Shown here piece after piece: positions 48,203 through 62,826 of a stretch of DNA of 64,000 nucleotides. Both the position numbers and the translations under genes were made by a program. Numbering within the stretch: the first letter of the stretch is position 1; the number at the start of each line of letters is the position of its first letter. Origin of the DNA: an uncultured Candidatus Saccharibacteria bacterium (lineage in GTDB: Bacteria; Patescibacteriota; Minisyncoccia; Phycocordibacterales; JAKFXT01). The notes beneath the pieces were generated by a model that was given only the letters and a program-made list of their open reading frames with translations, was not told the origin of the DNA and searched no databases. The DNA is taken from assembly GCA_964385825.1 (NCBI GenBank), contig CAYLPX010000001.1:84493-148492 (forward strand). Reading direction: 5' to 3'.

Positions 48203-48906
48203 CTAGTCGTTGTTAGTATTTATTTCGGCTAAGCATTTCTTCTGAAGGAAGTCATAGTCTATTTTTTCACAGAGTCTTGCATTTTTAGTATGGATGGCAA
48301 TATTTCCATAGCAATTATTTTTTGCTATTTCGTAAGCACCATAGTGTGCTAATGGTCTTGCTTCACATGCTGCGACTTGATTGGTTAAAAGGCCGAAATC
48401 ACTGTAACACTGGTCTATAGCATCTTCCTGAGTTGTGGTCATAATTTTCTGCCTTTTTTCTTCAGATCTGCTCATAAATCCTTCACCACTTTGATCGCAT
48501 AAATGCATGTCATTTTTTGCAATCGCAACTGCTCGTATGCAATCTTCCTTTAAGTATCCATTTGTAAAAGTTTTACAAACACTAACAGAATTCATTTTAC
48601 TTGCAACTGATACTTGGCACTGTCCTTGCGCAAGCGAGGTTTTCCCAATAGGAAAATCAGAATCAAGCAAAACATAAGGAGTGGGAGCTGAACATTGATA
48701 AAATTCTTTCTCAATTTGAGATCCCACAGCTGCAGCATCATAGCCCGAATTACTAAGAATATTATTAATTACAGTATCTGCTACAATAGTGCTATTTTCC
48801 TTAGCCGCTACGATATTTAGTTTATAAGGTTTTGAAGAATATCTTATATAAAAAAAGTGCTTACAAAAATAATTGCAACTAAGGTTAGTAAAATATTTTT
48901 CTTCAT
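48203..48906 (-). pseudogene. secreted Cys-rich protein gene interrupted at a T7 homopolymer (signal-peptide ORF 48844..48906 is -1 out of frame with the body 48203..48727)
   Basis: MKKNILLTLVAIIFVSTFF then a stop. The body frame (YIRYSSKPYKLNIVAAK...GSQIEKEFYQC...) is open across the tract. One extra T, or a -1 slip on T TTT TTT, fuses them. Confidence 0.4.
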
Positions 48907-48909
48907 ACT

Positions 48910-50664
48910 TTAGTTGAGTACTGCTTTGATACGACGAACACCAGCTGAAACTGCTTCTTCTTTTTGGATACTAAAAGCACCAAGGGTTCCGGTATTTTCT
49001 ACATGGGGACCACCACAGAACTCTAAACTGAAGTCCCCTATTTTGTAGACGCGTACTGTGTCACCATACTTTTCTTCAAAGAGTCCGATAGCTCCCTTCT
49101 TCTCAGCTTCGTCTTTCGGTAGATCTTCAAAGGTAACTGGTAGTCCTGCTTTAATTTGTTCATTCACCAATACTTCCACGGCCCTTTTTTGTTCATCAGT
49201 CATTTTCTCTGGGTGGGCAAAGTCAAAGCGAAGACGCTCGGTAGTAATGTTGCTTCCCTTCTGGGCAACGTGTTCACCAAGGATAGTTTTAAGTGCTTTG
49301 TGTAGTAGATGAGTTGCGGTGTGGTATTTTACGGATTGCTCGCTGGTATCAGCAAGACCACCTTTAAACTTTTTCTCCGAGCCCATGCGAGAAATGTCTT
49401 GGTGTTTTTGCATTTCTTCTTTAAACCCCTCCTCATCTATTGCAATACTGCGCTCATGAGCCAGCTCTCGAGTCATTTCAAATGGGAATCCATACGTGGA
49501 GAAAAGCTTGAAAGCTTCTTTTCCGGTAATCTTTCCGGTTGAAAGTTTAGTAAACTCTTTCATGCCATCAAGGAGGGTACGACGAAACCGTTTTTCTTCT
49601 TCCAATATTTCTTCTCGGATGACATTGCTTTCACTTTCAAGGTTTGGATAAGTTACTTTGTATTTTTCAATAACTGGGGCAACGAGGTGAGCGATATCGC
49701 CTTCTTTAAACTTTAAAATATCAGCAAAGCGGATGGCACGACGCAAAAGTCGGCGAAGTATGTACCCTTGATCAGTATTGGATGGTCGTACTCCATCAGC
49801 AATAAGGAAAACGCTGGTACGAATATGATCAGCCACTACGCGTATTGCTTTAACATCATGTTCTAGGGCGAAGTCTTCAATTTTCTGGATAAGAGGTTCA
49901 AAGATATCGGTATCATAGGCTGTTTTCTTGCGCTGCATAACAGCGGTAATGCGCTCAAGCCCAGCCCCCGTATCTACATTTTGTTGTGTGAGCTTTCCAA
50001 CAACCTTACCACCCTCTTTCTTGTACTCCATGAATACATCGTTCCAAATCTCAATAACATCTTCACGTTTCATGGCTGCAAGAAAAGCTTCTTTGTCTAA
50101 GTCGCCAAGACCCTTTTCAGTCATGTCGTAGAACATTTCCGTATCTGGTCCACAGGGGCCATTATCCCCTGGACTCCACCAATTATCTTCGGCAGGCAAA
50201 AAGTAAATACGCGCTTCGGGTATGCCGAGGGATTTCCAAATAGCCGGAGCTTCTTCGTCACGCGGAGCATTATTGTCTCCTTCAAATACAGTTACATACA
50301 GGCGTGTTGGATCAAGACCAAGTCCCTCTTCTTTTGAGGTAAGGAATTCAAAACTCCATGTGATAGCATCTTTTTTAAAATAATCGCCGAGTGACCAGTT
50401 CCCCATCATTTCAAAAAAAGAAAAGTGTCGCAAATCACCAATGTCTTCAAGATCACCAGTTCGGACACACTTTTGAACGTCAGCAATGCGCTTACCTAAA
50501 GGGTGTGGCGCCCCCATCAAAAAAGGTACCAGTGGTTGCATTCCGGCAGTATTAAAAAGCACTGAAGGGTCATTTTCCGGTACTAAAGAGGCTGAGGCGA
50601 TAATGGCGTGCCCTCTTTTTTTAAAAAAATCTAGGAACCGGGAGCGGATTTCGTTGGATTGCAT
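48910..50664 (-). CDS. alaS: alanine--tRNA ligase, short form (584 aa; catalytic, tRNA-recognition and editing-core domains; no C-Ala domain)
   Basis: N-terminal class II core FLDFFKKRGH, and the editing motif HTATHLLHKAL. Confidence 0.85.
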   Translation of the reverse strand: MQSNEIRSRFLDFFKKRGHAIIASASLVPENDPSVLFNTAGMQPLVPFLMGAPHPLGKRIADVQKCVRTGDLEDIGDLRHFSFFEMMGNWSLGDYFKKDAITWSFEFLTSKEEGLGLDPTRLYVTVFEGDNNAPRDEEAPAIWKSLGIPEARIYFLPAEDNWWSPGDNGPCGPDTEMFYDMTEKGLGDLDKEAFLAAMKREDVIEIWNDVFMEYKKEGGKVVGKLTQQNVDTGAGLERITAVMQRKKTAYDTDIFEPLIQKIEDFALEHDVKAIRVVADHIRTSVFLIADGVRPSNTDQGYILRRLLRRAIRFADILKFKEGDIAHLVAPVIEKYKVTYPNLESESNVIREEILEEEKRFRRTLLDGMKEFTKLSTGKITGKEAFKLFSTYGFPFEMTRELAHERSIAIDEEGFKEEMQKHQDISRMGSEKKFKGGLADTSEQSVKYHTATHLLHKALKTILGEHVAQKGSNITTERLRFDFAHPEKMTDEQKRAVEVLVNEQIKAGLPVTFEDLPKDEAEKKGAIGLFEEKYGDTVRVYKIGDFSLEFCGGPHVENTGTLGAFSIQKEEAVSAGVRRIKAVLN

Positions 50665-50688
50665 AATAGAGAGATTTTACCACATTGG

Positions 50689-51252
50689 TTAGTTGGGTAA
50701 AAATGCCGCTTTGGCTTGCGTTAAAACCTCTCTATGCATCATCACGAGTGGAGCTTCTTTGCCAAGTTTTTCTTCAATGATTGCAAAAACCTCATCATGG
50801 AACCAGGCATATTGCGTAGGGTCCTTAATCAAAATCTTCTCAGGGTTTTCAAGAGCGCTTAAAAGATTATGGATTTTGTCAGCCGAAGCAATGAGCGCAG
50901 TATCTTCCCCAGCGTTTTTTAATTTCCCTATATAGAGCTCTTTGCGTGCACGCCATGAGGAGAGATGCTTATCCTTTTTTAAAAGTTCAGTCACGGTTAA
51001 AACTAGAGAGGCCACACGCTTACCTAAGTGCTCTTCTATTTTTTGTAAGGGATAATCAGTGTCCTCAAGTATGTCGTGGAGGAGGGCGGCTGAGATCACC
51101 TCTTCATCGGTACTGTGGTTACTTACCATACTCGCAACTGAGTAGAGGTGGCTGACATAAGGTAGTGGGTAATCATAGGCAGCGCGGTATATGCCGTCGT
51201 GGGCAGCCGTAGCTATTTTAATCGCTTTTTCTATTCTGGGAGTGTAATTCAT
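50689..51252 (-). CDS. HD-domain phosphohydrolase, RelA/SpoT-type (p)ppGpp hydrolase-like
   Basis: AAHDGIYR...HLYSVASMV...ALLHDILEDT matches the Rel/Spo HD domain signature. The start is taken 4 nt after the UDG stop. Confidence 0.6.
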   Translation of the reverse strand: MNYTPRIEKAIKIATAAHDGIYRAAYDYPLPYVSHLYSVASMVSNHSTDEEVISAALLHDILEDTDYPLQKIEEHLGKRVASLVLTVTELLKKDKHLSSWRARKELYIGKLKNAGEDTALIASADKIHNLLSALENPEKILIKDPTQYAWFHDEVFAIIEEKLGKEAPLVMMHREVLTQAKAAFLPN

Positions 51253-51256
51253 TAGG

Positions 51257-51862
51257 TTAAAGGAATTGCTGGAGTATAGAAAAGTCACGTTTCAGTTCAT
51301 CCTTTGTTTTATTGTTATACACGGCAACAGCTGGATGGTAAAGGGGAATGATTTTGACTTCTCCATAGGAAGTTTGAGCTTTGAACACTTTGCCGTGAAT
51401 TTTACTAATGGGTGCAAGGTCACTTTCGAGGTTGAATTTTTCCATAATGTACTTCATGGAATATCGACCTAAGGTAGCTAAAACCTTTGGCTTGATGATA
51501 GTAATTTGTCTATCAAGAAATGGGCCATAGACAGATATTTCTTTTGGTGTCGGGTCACGGTTTTCTGGCGGTCGGTCTTTTACAATATTAGTTATATATA
51601 CTTTTTCACGTGGGAGTTTAATAGAAGCTAGTAGTTCGTCGAGCACACGGCCAGAGGCCCCGCAAAATGGTTTTCCCGTTAGGGCTTCGTTTTTACCAGG
51701 AGCTTCACCTATAAACATAATGGAAGTATCAAAACTTCCTTCGCCGATGACGGGGAACACTTTATTTTTAATACGTTCGGCATAAAGAGGAGAGTTTTTA
51801 AGCACTAAAATTTCATCAGAAATTTCTTTCATATAAAGCTCCTTTTCCTCCCTTTTTTTCAT
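51257..51862 (-). CDS. uracil-DNA glycosylase, family 4
   Basis: GEAPGKNEALTGKPFCGASG motif. Confidence 0.8.
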   Translation of the reverse strand: MKKREEKELYMKEISDEILVLKNSPLYAERIKNKVFPVIGEGSFDTSIMFIGEAPGKNEALTGKPFCGASGRVLDELLASIKLPREKVYITNIVKDRPPENRDPTPKEISVYGPFLDRQITIIKPKVLATLGRYSMKYIMEKFNLESDLAPISKIHGKVFKAQTSYGEVKIIPLYHPAVAVYNNKTKDELKRDFSILQQFL

Positions 51863-52789: not shown

Positions 52790-53569
52790 TTACTTTTTCT
52801 TGCGCAAATTCGCATCAGCCATGGCAGCTGCTTTGCGATAGGCACAGTATTGGCAGGTCTCACTGGGGTTTGGTAATTTTTCTTCTAGCAAACACTGTTT
52901 AATTTGTTTTAGTGTTTCTGGAATCCAGGATGGATCTCCTTTGTATGGTAACAGCACTACATCAAACTCTAGTTTGGCATCAAAGGCTTCCCTATCCTGC
53001 TTACCATTTACATACACAAAGTAACCAGTCTCTGATACTTTGAAGCCATTCTGTCTAAAGAGCCACTGATAGACTTCCATTTGCCTCTTGTATCCTATCT
53101 GCCATTCAGCATCGAGGTTTATTTCAGCCTCAGCGTCAGCCTTACTAGTTGCTTTGTAGTCAGCAATAATAAGTTCACCTTCTGGGTTTACCCACACATC
53201 ATCTATCCCACCGCGGATAATAAGATTTAGTTCCTTATCTAAATATTTTATGCCGTTGCGAAGGGCATCACGCCATTCATCCATACGATCGTCTTGTAGC
53301 GGCACAGCATCAAGGCCGTAGCTCTCAAGTAATGGATGCTTACTCTGAGCTTTGCGATGAATATCAAATTCTTTTTTAAGTAAGGCATCAACGGCATTGT
53401 TAAGGGTGAAGGGAAAAGAATCTGGTCGACCTATACCAAGTCGGCGATCAAGATAAAAGCAGCGAGCACACTCAAGAAAGAGGTCGATTTTGCTACGAGA
53501 AAGTTCAAAGGGCTCCTTACTTTCTGGATTAAATATTTTGTAAGTTTTAACTTTATAGAGAAATGCCAT
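52790..53569 (-). CDS. PD-(D/E)xK nuclease with Cas4-like Cys4 cluster (RecB-family exonuclease fold)
   Basis: GGIDDVWVNPEGELIIADYKAT gives a D...E.K core. Cys pairs CARC (N-terminal) and CQYC (C-terminal) match the Cas4/AddB Fe-S arrangement. Confidence 0.55.
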   Translation of the reverse strand: MAFLYKVKTYKIFNPESKEPFELSRSKIDLFLECARCFYLDRRLGIGRPDSFPFTLNNAVDALLKKEFDIHRKAQSKHPLLESYGLDAVPLQDDRMDEWRDALRNGIKYLDKELNLIIRGGIDDVWVNPEGELIIADYKATSKADAEAEINLDAEWQIGYKRQMEVYQWLFRQNGFKVSETGYFVYVNGKQDREAFDAKLEFDVVLLPYKGDPSWIPETLKQIKQCLLEEKLPNPSETCQYCAYRKAAAMADANLRKKK

Positions 53570-53616
53570 GGAGCAATAGGTAAAGTAATAAGCGGACAAA
53601 CAAAAAGAAAGCAGGC

Positions 53617-54117
53617 TTACTCTATGGGGTCGTGGCGAAGCTTTTCTTCAACTCCCCAGAGGGTAGAGAAGATAAAAAGGGTGAGCAGGGTTGTCATAAC
53701 AGCAATGGTGTAATAACCAAAAGCTACTGCAATACCTATACCATTAGCTACCCACATACCGGCAGCAGTAGTAACTCCTACCACTCTGTTGTCGTGGTAA
53801 ATGATGATTCCTCCACAAAGAAATCCTATACCCATCACAATACCAGCGGCCATACGCATCGGGTCGAAGTTGGTAAAGCCAATGAAGCGTTCTGTAGCGA
53901 GGAGTGAAATAATAACTAGAAGACAGGATCCCAAAGAAACGAAAGCGTATGTACGCATCCCCACCATTTTGTGCGATAGAGTACGCTCGGCTCCAATAAT
54001 GGCTCCAAGCCCCACCGCCGTTACCAGTTTTATAATAAGAGGAAGATTGGTAGTAAGGTAGGTTGCAAATGGTTCTGGGATCATAAATAGTGAGTTAATT
54101 ATAATGTATTTTGACAA
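53617..54117 (-). CDS. MgtC/SapB family membrane protein
   Basis: GAIIGAERTLSHKMVGMRTYAFVSLGS signature and four TM segments. Confidence 0.7.
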   Translation of the reverse strand: MSKYIIINSLFMIPEPFATYLTTNLPLIIKLVTAVGLGAIIGAERTLSHKMVGMRTYAFVSLGSCLLVIISLLATERFIGFTNFDPMRMAAGIVMGIGFLCGGIIIYHDNRVVGVTTAAGMWVANGIGIAVAFGYYTIAVMTTLLTLFIFSTLWGVEEKLRHDPIE

Positions 54118-54938
54118 AGAACCTTTCCTTCTTCAAGTACTTTGTTCATTTTTGCTTCACTCATGCCAAGTTTTTGAAGTGCTTCTCTATTCTCCCCTAC
54201 TGATTTGCAAAGAACAACCCCACCATTTAGGAGGTTAAGCTTCTCCTGCTTGTTTAAGGTAGTAAGACAGGTTATGGGATGTATTCCAGTTTGCTCTATA
54301 AGGTCTTGCAGGTTACCAAAACGTGGATAGGTCCAACTAAGTACCTTCATACCCTTACAATTGGCATACTGTACTGCCTGCTTAGTGAACTTAGTGTTGG
54401 TGATAAGCCATGCTTCGTCCACCGGTCGCTCGCCGCGCTCCGCTCGATACTTTTTAATATCGTCAATGCGAGAGTTTACATAGAGAGCCACTTTAACATC
54501 AGATTTAATACCGAGTTGGTTGTGATACTTTACTTCTCCCAAGATAGATTTTTGTTCATTTTCAGCCACTAGGTCTACTTCATGTTCCACGCAGGAGCCT
54601 TGGAGTACGACACCAGTTTCAACTTTAAAGCCCTTGGCCTTAAATATTTCTCCTATAAAATCCTCAAAAGGAAATCCTGATGGACCGAGCTCCATAACCG
54701 CACGTTTTAGTGAGTAACGCATAGCTGCAGGCTTTTCCAGTGAGCGTAAGTGGTCATAGGCTAGTTTGTAGATTAGGCCGGTAGGCATGCCGGGTTTTAT
54801 CTCGCTTTTGACCAGCTTAACGACAGCTGTAATTGATTTGTCATTAGCGCCAGAGCGGTGGAGGGAGTGAATGAGCTTGCTTACATCGAAAGCTTCTAGC
54901 TCACCATTTTCTTTCATGACGAGAAGTGGTTTTTTCAT
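54099..54938 (-). CDS. ATP-cone domain fused to a restriction-endonuclease (Mrr-like PD-(D/E)xK) domain
   Basis: An N-terminal ATP-cone (as in NrdR, about 90 aa) is followed by FEDFIGEIFKAKGFKVE...EVDLVAENEQKSILGEVKYH. Confidence 0.55.
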   Translation of the reverse strand: MKKPLLVMKENGELEAFDVSKLIHSLHRSGANDKSITAVVKLVKSEIKPGMPTGLIYKLAYDHLRSLEKPAAMRYSLKRAVMELGPSGFPFEDFIGEIFKAKGFKVETGVVLQGSCVEHEVDLVAENEQKSILGEVKYHNQLGIKSDVKVALYVNSRIDDIKKYRAERGERPVDEAWLITNTKFTKQAVQYANCKGMKVLSWTYPRFGNLQDLIEQTGIHPITCLTTLNKQEKLNLLNGGVVLCKSVGENREALQKLGMSEAKMNKVLEEGKVLCQNTL

Positions 54939-59868: not shown

Positions 59869-62751
59869 TTAGATAATGATATTAAGAACTTTGCCTGGAA
59901 TGTAAATGGTACGCTTTATTTCTCCCGCTATCCACTTAGCAATGGAATCTTCCCCTTTGGCCGCTTTAAGTGCCTCTTCTACAGGAGCTTCACTACCTAC
60001 AGTAATAACCCCACGGGCTTTTCCATTGATAGAAACAGAAATAGTGACAGTATCAGTCTTTAAGTATTTAGGATTAAAGACAGGCCACTTCTCGAGGTGA
60101 ATTGATTTCTTATTTCCAAGTTCTTGCCAAAGTTCCTCTGTTACATGTGGGGCAAATGGAGCAAGAAGACGCAGGAATATTTGATACTGCTCTCTTGTTA
60201 CTGTTGGATTATGCTCCATTTCATTGAGTAGAATCATGAGCTGGCTAATAGCCGTATTCATTTTAAGCCCCTCAATATCCTCACTAACCTTTTTTATGGT
60301 TTTGTGAAGTAACGGTAAGAAAGCTTCGGTATTGTGGTTCCGACAATCACGGCAAGTTTCCTTAAGTGGAACTCCAATATAAAACTGCCCAATGTTAAAT
60401 ACCCTTTCGATGAATCGCCTGGAGCCAGCCATGCTGTCTCCATCCCAGGCAATAGGTTGATCAAATGGTCCCATGAACATTTCAAAGAGACGTAGTGTGT
60501 CAGCTCCCAAAGTTTCAACGATAGTATCGGGGTTAATAACATTACCCTTTGATTTGGACATTTTAGCACCACCCTTAGCTAAGATAAGGCCATGACTTGT
60601 ACGCTTTTTATAGGGTTCACTAGTTGGAACAAGCTTTAAGTCGTAAAGAAACTTATGCCAAAAACGTGAATACAAAAGATGGAGTGTGGTGTGTTCCATT
60701 CCCCCGTTATACCAATCAACCGGCGTCCAGTAGGAAAGAGTTTTTTTACTCGCAAACTCTTTTTTATTTTGTGGATCGGCGTAGCGTAAGAAATACCATG
60801 ATGAGCCAGCCCACTGTGGCATGGTGTCTGTTTCGCGTCTTGCTGGACCCTTACACTTTGGGCAGGTAGTTGTTATCCACTTCTCCATGAGAGAAAGCGG
60901 TGACTCTCCAGTACTGGTTGGTTTGTAACTTTTAACTTTAGGAAGGACAACGGGGAGATTTTTTTCGGGTACAGGGACAATGCCACAGGTTTCGCAGTGA
61001 ATGATTGGTATTGGTTCACCCCAGTAGCGCTGACGAGAAAAAATCCAGTCGCGTAATTTGAAGGAAATTTTCTTTTTGCCTAAAGTTGCTTCTCTAATTT
61101 TTACTTTAGCCTCTTCGCTGGTAAGCCCGGTGAAGGGGCCAGAGTTAATGAGGACGCCGCTTTCGGTGTACACACTATCTTCCTTCTCCCACCGTGCTAG
61201 CCAATCAGCAAGTTCAGCATGAACTACTTTTGGATACACTATTTCTTCCTTACTGAACCATTGTAGATCGTAAGCATCCCCCTCTTCTTTGGTTCTCTCT
61301 ACTACAGTCTCATCAAGCAAATCAAACATGACGGCTTGTGTGAAAGCTATACGATTCTGATCTTTATGAGCAGCAAAATATTCTGCGCGTACCTGTCCTC
61401 CTAAAACTTTTATAAACTTTAAGTTTGTGTACCCTGTTTCTTCCGCCACTTCTCTTTTAGCAGCAGTTACAACATCTTCCCCGGCTTCTACCCCGCCCAT
61501 AGGAAAAGTAATCCAGGGCTGGGCTTTCCATTTGAGGAGTAAGTATTTATTGGTCTGGGGGTTACGAACAATGCAGTGAACATTTTGTCTTTCAACAACT
61601 CTTTTACCTTCTCGTGGTGGGTTGTTTTGATCGACTCGATTTGGTACCACTACTTCTTTTATGGGAAGATTGTGAGCTTTGGCAAAAGCGTAATCACGTT
61701 CATCATGCGCGGGAACGGCCATAATGGCCCCTGTTCCATAATGTGCTAAGACATAATCCGCTATAAAAATTGGCACTGTCTCTTTTGTGCCGGGGTTTAT
61801 GGCTACAACACCCTCAAGCTGTACACCCGTCTTTTCTTTGCCTTCTGCTGTTCTTTCAATATCCTCCTTTGCAAGCGCTGCCTTTTGATATGCTTCCAAA
61901 GCCCTTTGATTAGTAATAGCTGGTGCTAATACTTTTAAGATGGGATGCTCTGGAGCAAGTACAACATAAGTAGCGCCAAAGAGCGTGTCTGGCCTTGTAG
62001 TAAAAACTTCAAGTTTGGCTAATACATCCTGGCCCGCATTAGCAATAGGAAAGGTTAGTAAGGCCCCTTCGCTTTTTCCTATCCAGTTACGTTGCTGGAT
62101 TTTAATTTTTTCTAAATAATCAACAGAGTCTAGATCTTTGTCCAAGCGCTCAGCATATTTAGTAATAGCAAGCATCCATTGCTCTCGCTCACGCTTCTCG
62201 GTTGGTGTTCCACAGCGCTCGCACTTCCCATCTATGACTTCTTCATTAGCTAAGCCCACCAGATCCTTCGGACACCAATTAACTACGGTACGAGCTTTGT
62301 AGGCTAAACCCTTCTTTAGTAACTGTAAAAATATCCATTGCGTCCATTTGTAGTAAGCCGGATCGGTAGTATTAACCTCACGACTCCAGTCAAAAGAAAA
62401 ACCAAGTCTTTGGAGTTGCTTACGAAAATTGGCTATATTTTTCTTGGTTTGAATGGCGGGATGAATACCTGTTTTAATTGCATAGTTTTCAGCCGGAAGT
62501 CCAAAAGCATCCCAACCAATCGGAAAAAGTACGTTATACCCCTCGCCTCGCCGTTTGCGAGCGACAATGTCCATAGCGGTATTGCTACGAATGTGACCAA
62601 CGTGTAAACCCTCTCCCGAAGGGTATGGGAACTCAATAAGACCGTAGAATTTTTTAGTTTTTGAGGGGAAGTTGGCCTTACCAAGGTTTTCCTTCTTCCA
62701 AACTGCCTGCCATTTCTTTTCAATCCTTTTGTGGTTATAGGTTCTAGCCAT
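59869..62751 (-). CDS. leuS: leucine--tRNA ligase carrying an inserted NUDIX hydrolase domain (about aa 371-531)
   Basis: HIGH (HVGH) and KMSKS are present. The TTRPDT editing region is intact. The insert contains a complete Nudix box GGVEAGEDVVTAAKREVAEETGY. Confidence 0.9.
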   Translation of the reverse strand: MARTYNHKRIEKKWQAVWKKENLGKANFPSKTKKFYGLIEFPYPSGEGLHVGHIRSNTAMDIVARKRRGEGYNVLFPIGWDAFGLPAENYAIKTGIHPAIQTKKNIANFRKQLQRLGFSFDWSREVNTTDPAYYKWTQWIFLQLLKKGLAYKARTVVNWCPKDLVGLANEEVIDGKCERCGTPTEKREREQWMLAITKYAERLDKDLDSVDYLEKIKIQQRNWIGKSEGALLTFPIANAGQDVLAKLEVFTTRPDTLFGATYVVLAPEHPILKVLAPAITNQRALEAYQKAALAKEDIERTAEGKEKTGVQLEGVVAINPGTKETVPIFIADYVLAHYGTGAIMAVPAHDERDYAFAKAHNLPIKEVVVPNRVDQNNPPREGKRVVERQNVHCIVRNPQTNKYLLLKWKAQPWITFPMGGVEAGEDVVTAAKREVAEETGYTNLKFIKVLGGQVRAEYFAAHKDQNRIAFTQAVMFDLLDETVVERTKEEGDAYDLQWFSKEEIVYPKVVHAELADWLARWEKEDSVYTESGVLINSGPFTGLTSEEAKVKIREATLGKKKISFKLRDWIFSRQRYWGEPIPIIHCETCGIVPVPEKNLPVVLPKVKSYKPTSTGESPLSLMEKWITTTCPKCKGPARRETDTMPQWAGSSWYFLRYADPQNKKEFASKKTLSYWTPVDWYNGGMEHTTLHLLYSRFWHKFLYDLKLVPTSEPYKKRTSHGLILAKGGAKMSKSKGNVINPDTIVETLGADTLRLFEMFMGPFDQPIAWDGDSMAGSRRFIERVFNIGQFYIGVPLKETCRDCRNHNTEAFLPLLHKTIKKVSEDIEGLKMNTAISQLMILLNEMEHNPTVTREQYQIFLRLLAPFAPHVTEELWQELGNKKSIHLEKWPVFNPKYLKTDTVTISVSINGKARGVITVGSEAPVEEALKAAKGEDSIAKWIAGEIKRTIYIPGKVLNIII

Positions 62752-62780: not shown

Positions 62781-62826
62781 AAAATCAAAACCCCTCCCCA
62801 AACTTGGGGAGGGGTTTTGATTTTTT
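62781..62826. terminator. bidirectional terminator (16-bp stem atcaaaacccctcccc / ggggaggggttttgat)
   Basis: Read directly. Confidence 0.65.

Follow-up and report, generated by a model that had tools for sequence, protein, structure and literature searches.

The leuS gene considered here encodes a leucyl-tRNA synthetase (LeuRS) whose editing domain contains a Nudix domain, which raises the question of what such a domain is doing inside an aminoacyl-tRNA synthetase. The gene lies in a window of 64,000 nucleotides, the whole stretch of DNA that was analyzed, from a Patescibacteria (CPR) genome. To our knowledge, bacterial aminoacyl-tRNA synthetases seldom carry an added enzymatic domain. One precedent on a class I synthetase is NCBIfam model NF040702, [quoted passage not shown] which is known to us by its model name alone and, judged by that name, differs from the LeuRS-Nudix protein in its host (IleRS), its fold (GNAT), and its chemistry. 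The literature searched describes no LeuRS-Nudix or other synthetase-Nudix fusion, and a predicted catalytically intact Nudix domain in the LeuRS editing domain is new in that respect.

The host synthetase and its insert

The leuS gene is a single intact ORF on the minus strand (59869..62751, stop codon included) that encodes a bacterial-type LeuRS of 960 amino acids; all of the features located below are on the same strand. The product scores 982.4 bits against TIGR00396 (leuS_bact), above the curated cut-off of 548.4, and its full-length AF2 model (pLDDT 88.3) matches LeuRS structures at TMt values of 0.8-0.85, with 2bte and 4arc among the best matches. The motifs quoted in the sequence-only reading were all recovered by translation: the HIGH signature, present as HVGH (residues 50-53; 62593..62604), the threonine-rich editing motif TTRPDT (residues 251-256; 61984..62001), the editing-site sequence AHDERD (residues 348-353; 61693..61710), and the KMSKS signature (residues 730-734; 60550..60564). 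Among 98 sequences, H50, G52, H53, T251, T252, R253, T256, H349, D350, R352, D353, K730, S732, K733, and S734 are invariant, and M731 is conserved in at least 90%. The anticodon-binding domain (Pfam PF08264) comprises residues 812-926 (59974..60318). The protein is a bacterial LeuRS that is complete apart from the insert and has the same full class Ia architecture as the enzymes from Thermus thermophilus (1h3n/2bte) and Escherichia coli (4aq7/4arc), having in common with known bacterial LeuRS the HIGH and KMSKS signatures, CP1 with its TTRPDT and AHDxRD motifs, and the anticodon-binding and C-terminal domains. In the alignment, T. thermophilus residues 585-634, a segment preceding KMSKS that we take to be the leucine-specific domain, have no counterpart in the window LeuRS.

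The Nudix module (residues 371-531; 61159..61641), which includes an N-terminal extension (NPPREGKxVER) and a C-terminal helix, is located in a CP1 loop that has the "IKEVV" strand on one side and the "GVLINSG" strand on the other, and translation places the flanking sequences LPIKEVVVP and GVLINSGPF at 61642-61668 and 61132-61158, respectively. Of the CP1 editing domain (PF13603), the N-terminal part extends from residue 221 to residue 370 (61642..62091) and ends at the insertion point; the profile match itself covers residues 221-376, corresponding to profile positions 1-148 of 185, with 206 bits. On alignment with 1h3n, residues 368 and 525 of the window LeuRS correspond to T. thermophilus residues 362 and 374, and a Nudix domain of approximately 156 residues therefore replaces the 11-residue CP1 loop 363-373. 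In L049, a patescibacterial LeuRS that lacks the insert, the linker is approximately 25 residues long and the PF13603 match is complete. The 1h3n alignment and the L049 linker bear out both statements of the sequence-only reading, that the protein has about 160 residues in excess and that the linker of canonical LeuRS is short. The LeuRS sequences in the PDB skip the segment without aligning to it, and its identification as a known CP1 extension of LeuRS was rejected.

The search against Pfam NUDIX (PF00293) that the same reading had proposed for residues 371-531 gave a significant match (64 bits, E = 1.3e-17); within the whole protein, the match comprises residues 388-517 (61201..61590; 60 bits, E = 3.3e-16, gathering cut-off 21.1). 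The AF2 model of the insert alone has a pLDDT of 94.1 and the alpha/beta/alpha Nudix fold, and stand-alone homologues of 160-180 amino acids span the same extent. The segment is an autonomous Nudix domain of approximately 155 residues within the CP1 editing domain of a complete LeuRS, a conclusion of which we are almost certain. It is also a complete domain, as had been claimed.

Some relatives have a stand-alone Nudix copy immediately upstream of leuS, and a mis-join of the two genes is conceivable in principle. Nevertheless, there is next to no chance that the architecture is an artefact or a mobile insertion, whether an assembly chimera, a frameshift-joined neighbor, an intein, or DNA inserted recently by horizontal transfer. 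The insert is internal and continuous in frame with the LeuRS sequence that flanks it, its GC content (0.429) equals that of the remainder of the gene (0.430), and its fold is that of a Nudix protein and not an intein. The architecture, a LeuRS with an internal Nudix domain, recurs in >120 independent assemblies. The window LeuRS is 100% identical to the representative P0001, whose 90% cluster is found on 9 contigs. Artefact, intein, and recent transfer were rejected on these grounds.

The predicted active site and its nearest relatives

The Nudix box GGVEAGEDVVTAAKREVAEETGY (residues 419-441; 61429..61497) fits the definition GX5EX7REUXEEXGU (PMC10148737) at every position, and its description as canonical holds on translation. 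G419, G420, R433, E434, and G440 are invariant, and each of E425, E437, and E438 is retained in 119 of 120 homologues. All box residues are retained in 90% of the copies at the same LeuRS site, the window copy included. From this conservation the LeuRS-borne domain appears to be catalytically intact and is apparently active. A non-catalytic Nudix fold, kept as a structural brace, as an NrtR-like ligand sensor, or as a surface that binds RNA or protein (compare CFIm25 and MRP-L46), is very unlikely, given the full box and the near-complete retention of E434, E437, and E438. Downstream of the box, the subfamily signature HKDQNR (residues 462-467; 61351..61368) has K463, N466, and R467 invariant in the 120 homologues; in diverse family alignments, the lysine and asparagine are invariant, and the arginine is invariant or nearly so. 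The signature has a putative role in binding the polyphosphate chain.

The nearest characterized relatives are RppH/NudH and the Nudix Ap4A hydrolases. RppH is the closest named family by fold, sequence profile, and NCBIfam models, but the insert is not a member of it. Identity to RppH/NudH (E. coli; 4s2x, 7sp3, and 6d13) is just 17-20%, the insert has a different signature (VER..W..W.TF..GG, HKxxNR, and EE..H..W) together with the N-terminal extension, and it is embedded in a synthetase, whereas RppH is free or bound to DapF. Against the RppH/NudH equivalogs NF001934-NF001938, the insert scores at most 28.5 bits and a stand-alone member (P0234) 39.8 bits, below the cut-offs of 116-259; in the comparison with E. 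coli RppH/NudH, NCBIfam scores are 26-40 bits and the cut-offs 116-118. RppH models match 26 of 28 subfamily members, as compared with 4-6 for MutT models; the weak NCBIfam matches include MutT, NudI, and NudB.

This relationship raises the possibility that the domain acts on tRNA ends. Brought by the body of the synthetase or by an anticodon-binding domain, a tRNA would lose the polyphosphate or non-canonical cap (ppp, Np4, or NAD) at its 5' end to the Nudix domain. The module is on CP1, which takes the tRNA acceptor end during editing, as LeuRS-tRNA complexes show (for example, 2bte and 4arc), and two complete genes, P0215 and P0248, encode a ProRS-type anticodon-binding domain and a Nudix domain of this subfamily and nothing else. 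On the other hand, bacterial tRNAs are normally left 5'-monophosphorylated by RNase P, we know of no capped or triphosphorylated tRNA in these organisms, and the box is partly degenerate in the ProRS-associated copies. We regard an activity of this kind as improbable.

Profile matches to the Nudix Ap4A hydrolases (lupin 1f3y/1jkn, human NUDT2, Caenorhabditis elegans 1kt9, and Aquifex aeolicus 3i7u) are confined to the N-terminal 70 residues. In the Nudix ApnA hydrolases, the X-loop that follows the box contains a conserved tyrosine (PMC5389931). A candidate equivalent in the insert is Y458, which lies at +17 from the box and which the model puts in a strand. Tyrosine is not strict at this position, which is Tyr in 76 and Phe in 42 of 120 homologues, and the residue that follows is Phe in 90 and Tyr in 26. 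The proline that is conserved in a loop downstream of the box in ADP-ribose pyrophosphatases (PMC5389931) is absent from residues 442-505. The SQPWPFPxS sequence found downstream of the box in NADH pyrophosphatases (NudC/NUDT12; PMC5389931) does not occur in the insert, and NudC/NUDT12 profile matches are limited to the box region. The Enterococcus faecalis MutT/Nudix protein 2azw (20% identity) is free-standing and gives no functional information because it is a structural-genomics entry without an assigned substrate.

Distribution in and beside synthetase genes

The insert belongs to a distinct, uncharacterized Nudix subfamily whose members are found mostly within or beside aminoacyl-tRNA synthetase genes. 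An insert-only query of a word-indexed protein database gave 3 matches, and the subfamily was collected by exhaustive search of representatives. It is nearly confined to the insides or the neighbors of synthetases of both classes: members are part of LeuRS (in one to three copies in relatives), of ProRS, and of the fusion with a free anticodon-binding domain, and others abut leuS, thrS, and argS. A possible route to the embedded state would lead from a separate gene upstream of leuS (P0234 type), through the combination of an upstream and an embedded copy (P0143 type), to an embedded copy with no upstream gene, as in the window. In a metagenome scan for stand-alone contexts, the strong matches were all LeuRS-embedded copies. 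Many of the LeuRS-Nudix proteins are annotated as "class I tRNA ligase family protein," and one LeuRS is misnamed "RdgB/HAM1 family pyrophosphatase."

The Nudix-in-LeuRS architecture is conserved in much of the Patescibacteria. Some GTDB MAGs that have it are labeled Clostridia, Bacilli, or Muribaculaceae; the labels "Bacilli" and "Muribaculaceae" are unreliable because the LeuRS concerned are 61-68% identical, and our claim is for Patescibacteria. The correlation between divergence of the insert and of the LeuRS core is 0.14-0.18 over a narrow range of identities and is for that reason uninformative on vertical inheritance. Site-specific nearest-neighbor clustering is more useful than this co-divergence.

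Related synthetases carry other hydrolases. The LeuRS P0205 contains a Ham1/RdgB ITPase (197 bits), and its cluster of six members is found on seven contigs; P0023 contains an HAD phosphatase, and P0044 and P0113 contain an alpha/beta Ser_hydrolase, all at sites that differ from the Nudix site. An IleRS-like gene includes His_Phos_1. An ASCH-like stretch noted by eye in P0205 was dropped, having no Pfam support at E<=0.001. In a sample of 12 lineages, stand-alone Nudix members were observed 4 nt downstream of fpg/nei (3 contigs), between pyrG and an IMPDH-family gene, upstream of purB, and near nrdDG. The fpg/nei product is the 8-oxoG repair partner of MutT. These neighborhoods, the house-cleaning type of the hydrolases at other sites, and the weak matches to MutT, NudI, and NudB are consistent with a general sanitizer of the nucleotide pool, of the MutT-like or NTP-pyrophosphatase type, that has no mechanistic tie to leucylation and for which LeuRS is a scaffold. 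In these reduced genomes, such a domain would have settled in loops that tolerate insertion, within a protein that is essential and made constitutively. However, many kinds of host protein would then be expected, rather than a subfamily found almost exclusively in or beside synthetases, and MutT models match far fewer members than do RppH models. A general sanitizer is possible but on the whole unlikely.

Proposed clean-up of synthetase side-products

The confinement of the subfamily largely to synthetase genes and their neighbors suggests an unrecognized clean-up activity that is attached to synthetases. Aminoacyl-adenylates formed by a synthetase can pass on their AMP, with ATP, another polyphosphate, or RNA with a 5'-triphosphate as the acceptor, giving Ap4A or Ap4N. 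The on-board Nudix domain would cleave these asymmetrically to ATP or NTP and AMP, and the synthetase's own side-products would be kept from building up in a cell whose other nucleotide-metabolizing enzymes are very few. We propose tentatively, at somewhat less than even probability, that the Nudix domain disposes of Ap4A and Ap4N made by the synthetase. A version directed to RNA, and not to free nucleotides, would be a synthetase-borne quality control, in which an RppH-like Nudix domain removes 5' polyphosphates or Ap4-type caps, possibly installed by the synthetase from the adenylate, from tRNA brought by CP1, by ProRS, or by the free anticodon-binding domain; it seems decidedly improbable.

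The presence of the subfamily in ProRS, in the anticodon-binding domain fusion, and beside leuS, thrS, and argS suggests a real link between synthetases and nucleotide-pyrophosphate hydrolysis. If Ap4A and Ap4N are disposed of locally, the question of whether synthetase-made Ap4A is signal or damage would become directly testable with a natural fusion. If the RNA-directed version were true, it would represent a third kind of proofreading or repair step within aminoacyl-tRNA synthetases. In these reduced genomes, several hydrolase domains (Nudix, Ham1, HAD, and alpha/beta hydrolase) have LeuRS as their platform, and this bears on how house-cleaning is organized in minimal cells.

Leucyl-tRNA synthetase and its embedded domain

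The leuS gene is a single, intact ORF of the minus strand (window 59869–62751) that encodes a protein of 960 residues. The host enzyme is a member of the bacterial LeuRS family (982 bits against TIGR00396, cut-off 548); in Pfam searches it has catalytic and anticodon-binding domains together with an editing domain (PF13603) in which residues 221–376 match profile positions 1–148 of 185. Translation of the minus strand bears out all of the motifs listed in the sequence-only reading, namely HVGH (62593–62604), TTRPDT (61984–62001), AHDERD (61693–61710) and KMSKS (60550–60564), as well as the flanking sequences LPIKEVVVP (61642–61668) and GVLINSGPF (61132–61158) and the Nudix box GGVEAGEDVVTAAKREVAEETGY (61429–61497). 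Class I signatures and editing-site motifs are conserved in an alignment with 98 relatives, nearly every position being invariant, and the host LeuRS therefore looks fully functional, as judged from its sequence. The alignment with Thermus thermophilus LeuRS (1h3n) passes from residue 584 to residue 635 of that enzyme; the intervening 585–634, about 50 residues that we take to be the leucine-specific domain, have no counterpart directly ahead of KMSKS (residues about 728–734, window 60550–60570). Upstream of leuS, a hairpin that is strong and rich in GC, with a T run after it (AAAAATCAAAACCCCTCCCC AAGT TTGGGGAGGGGTTTTGATTTTT, minus strand, window about 62781–62824), begins directly past the stop codon of a DUF5671 gene, so leuS probably has its own promoter.

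Residues 371–531 correspond exactly to window 61159–61641. The claim that a NUDIX domain lies within LeuRS was checked against PF00293, which matches residues 388–517 of the whole protein (E = 3.3e-16, 60 bits) and scores 64 bits with the insert by itself (cut-off 21.1); the segment does not correspond to a known CP extension. In the alignment with 1h3n, residues 368 and 525 are equivalent to residues 362 and 374, and about 156 residues, close to the 160 first estimated, stand where that enzyme has a loop of 11 residues in its CP1 editing domain. The short linker expected of LeuRS without the insert is thus present in T. thermophilus and also in an insert-less Patescibacterial LeuRS (locus L049), where it has about 25 residues and the PF13603 match is complete. 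An AF2 model of residues 365–536, built with a 100-sequence alignment, has a pLDDT of 94.1 and a pTM of 0.87, and its structural matches are Nudix hydrolases, in agreement with the proposed fold. The model of the full-length LeuRS (pLDDT 88.3; TMt 0.8–0.85 against bacterial LeuRS structures) agrees with this model in the secondary-structure elements of the insert, and both linkers are at high confidence.

Two other groups of genes in the window have unusual domain compositions. AlaRS (48913–50676, minus strand) has only 588 residues, comprising the catalytic domain and tRNA_SAD, and ends without the C-terminal domain; an overlapping downstream ORF of 255 residues (48206–48970, minus strand) has no Pfam match, and a gene for an HD_4 protein of the ppGpp-hydrolase type (50692–51291) lies just upstream. 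An unusual fusion of ATP-cone, Mrr-type restriction-endonuclease catalytic and AF1548-like C-terminal domains (54102–54938, minus strand) adjoins a PD-(D/E)XK/Cas4-like nuclease gene (52793–53647).

Conservation and range of the insert

Alignment with relatives, as proposed in the sequence-only reading, recovered the insert, with PF00293, in all 120 of the best homologues (50–79% identity); those that are named belong to Patescibacteria, Paceibacter, Moraniibacteriota or Paceibacterota. Residues Gly419, Gly420, Arg433, Glu434, Gly440, Arg388, Lys463, Asn466, Arg467 and Trp498 are invariant in this alignment, Glu425, Glu437, Glu438 and Glu490 are retained in 119 of the 120 sequences, and Trp413 in 118. 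Mean pairwise identity is 48% for the insert as compared with 66% for the LeuRS core, and 30 of 161 columns versus 334 of 799 are at least 90% conserved. By these alignments, the insert is evolving faster than the core, and its catalytic positions are clearly under purifying selection. The GC content of the insert is 0.429 versus 0.430 for the remainder of leuS, and the architecture was recovered many times in scans of GTDB genomes and metagenomes; the likelihood that it is an artefact is vanishingly small. LeuRS with a Nudix insert at the same site is also present in MAGs labelled "Bacilli", "Muribaculaceae" or "Clostridia" (loci L034, L038, L040, L041, L042, L046; L024, L026, L031). These labels cannot all be right because the "Bacilli" and "Muribaculaceae" proteins are 61–68% identical to each other. 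With the labels of several MAGs inconsistent, we claim the architecture for Patescibacteria only.

A synthetase-associated Nudix subfamily

With the insert as query, an exhaustive phmmer search through 1.84 billion representative proteins gave 556 matches at E ≤ 1e-3, of which 186 reach E ≤ 1e-10, and 108 of the 148 top representatives contain LeuRS core sequence. The module occupies three sites in LeuRS (323 instances): site C, past the HDxRD motif, which is that of the window (241 instances, 218 with a full box), site A, ahead of CP1 (19), and site B, within the N-terminal portion of CP1 (11). The nearest relatives of a copy are mostly at the same site. The catalytic glutamates are invariant or nearly so at site C, which argues against a non-catalytic module, a reading that we consider very improbable. 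Some LeuRS orthologues have three copies (P0090, P0111, P0124, P0126, L007) and others two (P0012, P0013, P0017, P0018, P0044, P0045, P0113 and others); in many of the additional copies the box is degenerate, GGxExGQT..AAxAEIxEETGY.

By comparison with an insert-less ProRS, an archaeal-type ProRS (P0247; L092 2906–4837) carries the module between its anticodon-binding and C-terminal domains. This fusion is one sequence, supported by three related representatives that combine an anticodon-binding domain with the Nudix domain. P0215 (L090 197–952) and P0248 (L091 4001–4744) are complete, contig-interior genes for proteins of about 250 residues composed of a ProRS-type anticodon-binding domain and the subfamily Nudix domain and nothing else; an insert-less proS is 1.3 kb from P0248. 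Such proteins, together with the position of the insert on CP1, would fit an RppH-like action on the 5' ends of tRNA or other RNA, but bacterial tRNAs normally have a 5'-monophosphate and we regard this role as unlikely.

Free-standing members (160–180 residues) have the family signature, including an N-terminal extension in common with the insert. Their gene context was inspected in 12 lineages, a small sample. On three contigs (including L048, 3451–3936 and 3939 onward; L049, 492–977 and 980–3217; and L050), P0234 lies 2 nt ahead of a leuS that lacks the insert. P0143 is separated by 1 nt from the leuS that follows it, which has an embedded copy as well, and P0276 is 104 nt upstream of thrS. 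P0173 follows argS after 12 nt and is itself followed, about 600 nt further on, by an IleRS-like gene whose insert is a His_Phos_1 domain. If about 20 of every 600–1000 genes encode synthetases and the lineages are assumed to be independent, an immediate synthetase neighbour in 4 of 12 has a rough binomial probability of 0.001–0.006. The gene order at the P0143 locus (DUF5671, Nudix, leuS, Sigma70_r4/HARE-HTH) is the same as the synteny of the window. leuS occurs in three arrangements: without the insert but preceded by a stand-alone gene, with both the preceding gene and an embedded copy, and, in the window, with the embedded copy alone. They suggest that the embedded domain may have come from a gene neighbouring leuS. 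We conclude that the subfamily is distinct, uncharacterised and synthetase-associated.

The IleRS-like gene (L096 5094–8498) encodes a large class I synthetase (PF00133, Anticodon_1, DUF5915) with an inserted His_Phos_1 histidine-phosphatase domain in precomputed Pfam annotation. It adjoins argS and the stand-alone Nudix gene, and the locus also contains thymidylate kinase, a second Nudix gene and dUTPase.

Proposed function and relation to known families

Other stand-alone members are 4 nt downstream of fpg/nei (P0204, three contigs), between pyrG-like and IMPDH-family genes (P0273), upstream of purB (P0277) and near nrdDG (L030); the neighbours of P0275, P0274, L014 and P0215 are uninformative. 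The first four of these neighbourhoods are consistent with a general sanitiser of the nucleotide pool that is parked on LeuRS, as are LeuRS relatives with other inserted enzymes: a Ham1/RdgB ITPase (P0205, residues 984–1167; a cluster of six members seen on seven contigs), a HAD phosphatase (P0023, 653–808) and an alpha/beta Ser_hydrolase (P0044, 750–905; P0113, 441–598). A generic enzyme should not, however, be tied so consistently to synthetases, and we find this explanation possible but rather doubtful.

The preferred mechanism, held tentatively and at somewhat less than even probability, is that the insert would hydrolyze adenylate-derived Ap4A/Ap4N on board the synthetase. It is favoured by a combination of the canonical, conserved box, the Nudix fold and the additional invariant basic or polar residues (Arg388, Lys463, Asn466 and Arg467) with the pattern of specificity motifs and the literature on Ap4A and RppH. 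The insert sequence lacks the ADP-ribose (proline) motif and the NADH motif SQPWPFPxS (PMC5389931). The residue at +17 of the box is aromatic, Tyr458 (Tyr in 76 and Phe in 42 of the 120 homologues), and by its sequence position may be the counterpart of the tyrosine of ApnA hydrolases. Ap4A, of which synthetases are a main source, is cleaved asymmetrically by Nudix enzymes including RppH, and Np4A caps, which LysRS can install on RNA in vitro, are removed by RppH (PMC10148737).

The insert belongs to the Nudix superfamily; its scores fall below the family cut-offs for RppH, of which it is not a member. No account of a fusion between a Nudix domain and LeuRS or another aaRS turned up in full-text literature searches, and databases give only the Pfam domains and labels like "class I tRNA ligase family protein". 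One LeuRS of the P0205 cluster is named "RdgB/HAM1 family non-canonical purine NTP pyrophosphatase" at NCBI. What appears to be new is a LeuRS with an embedded domain of catalytic type and its uncharacterised, synthetase-associated Nudix subfamily. The arrangement elaborates on known parts, and the substrate of the insert is a proposal. The fusion, which would surprise a synthetase specialist, makes dinucleoside polyphosphates derived from synthetases directly accessible to experiment.
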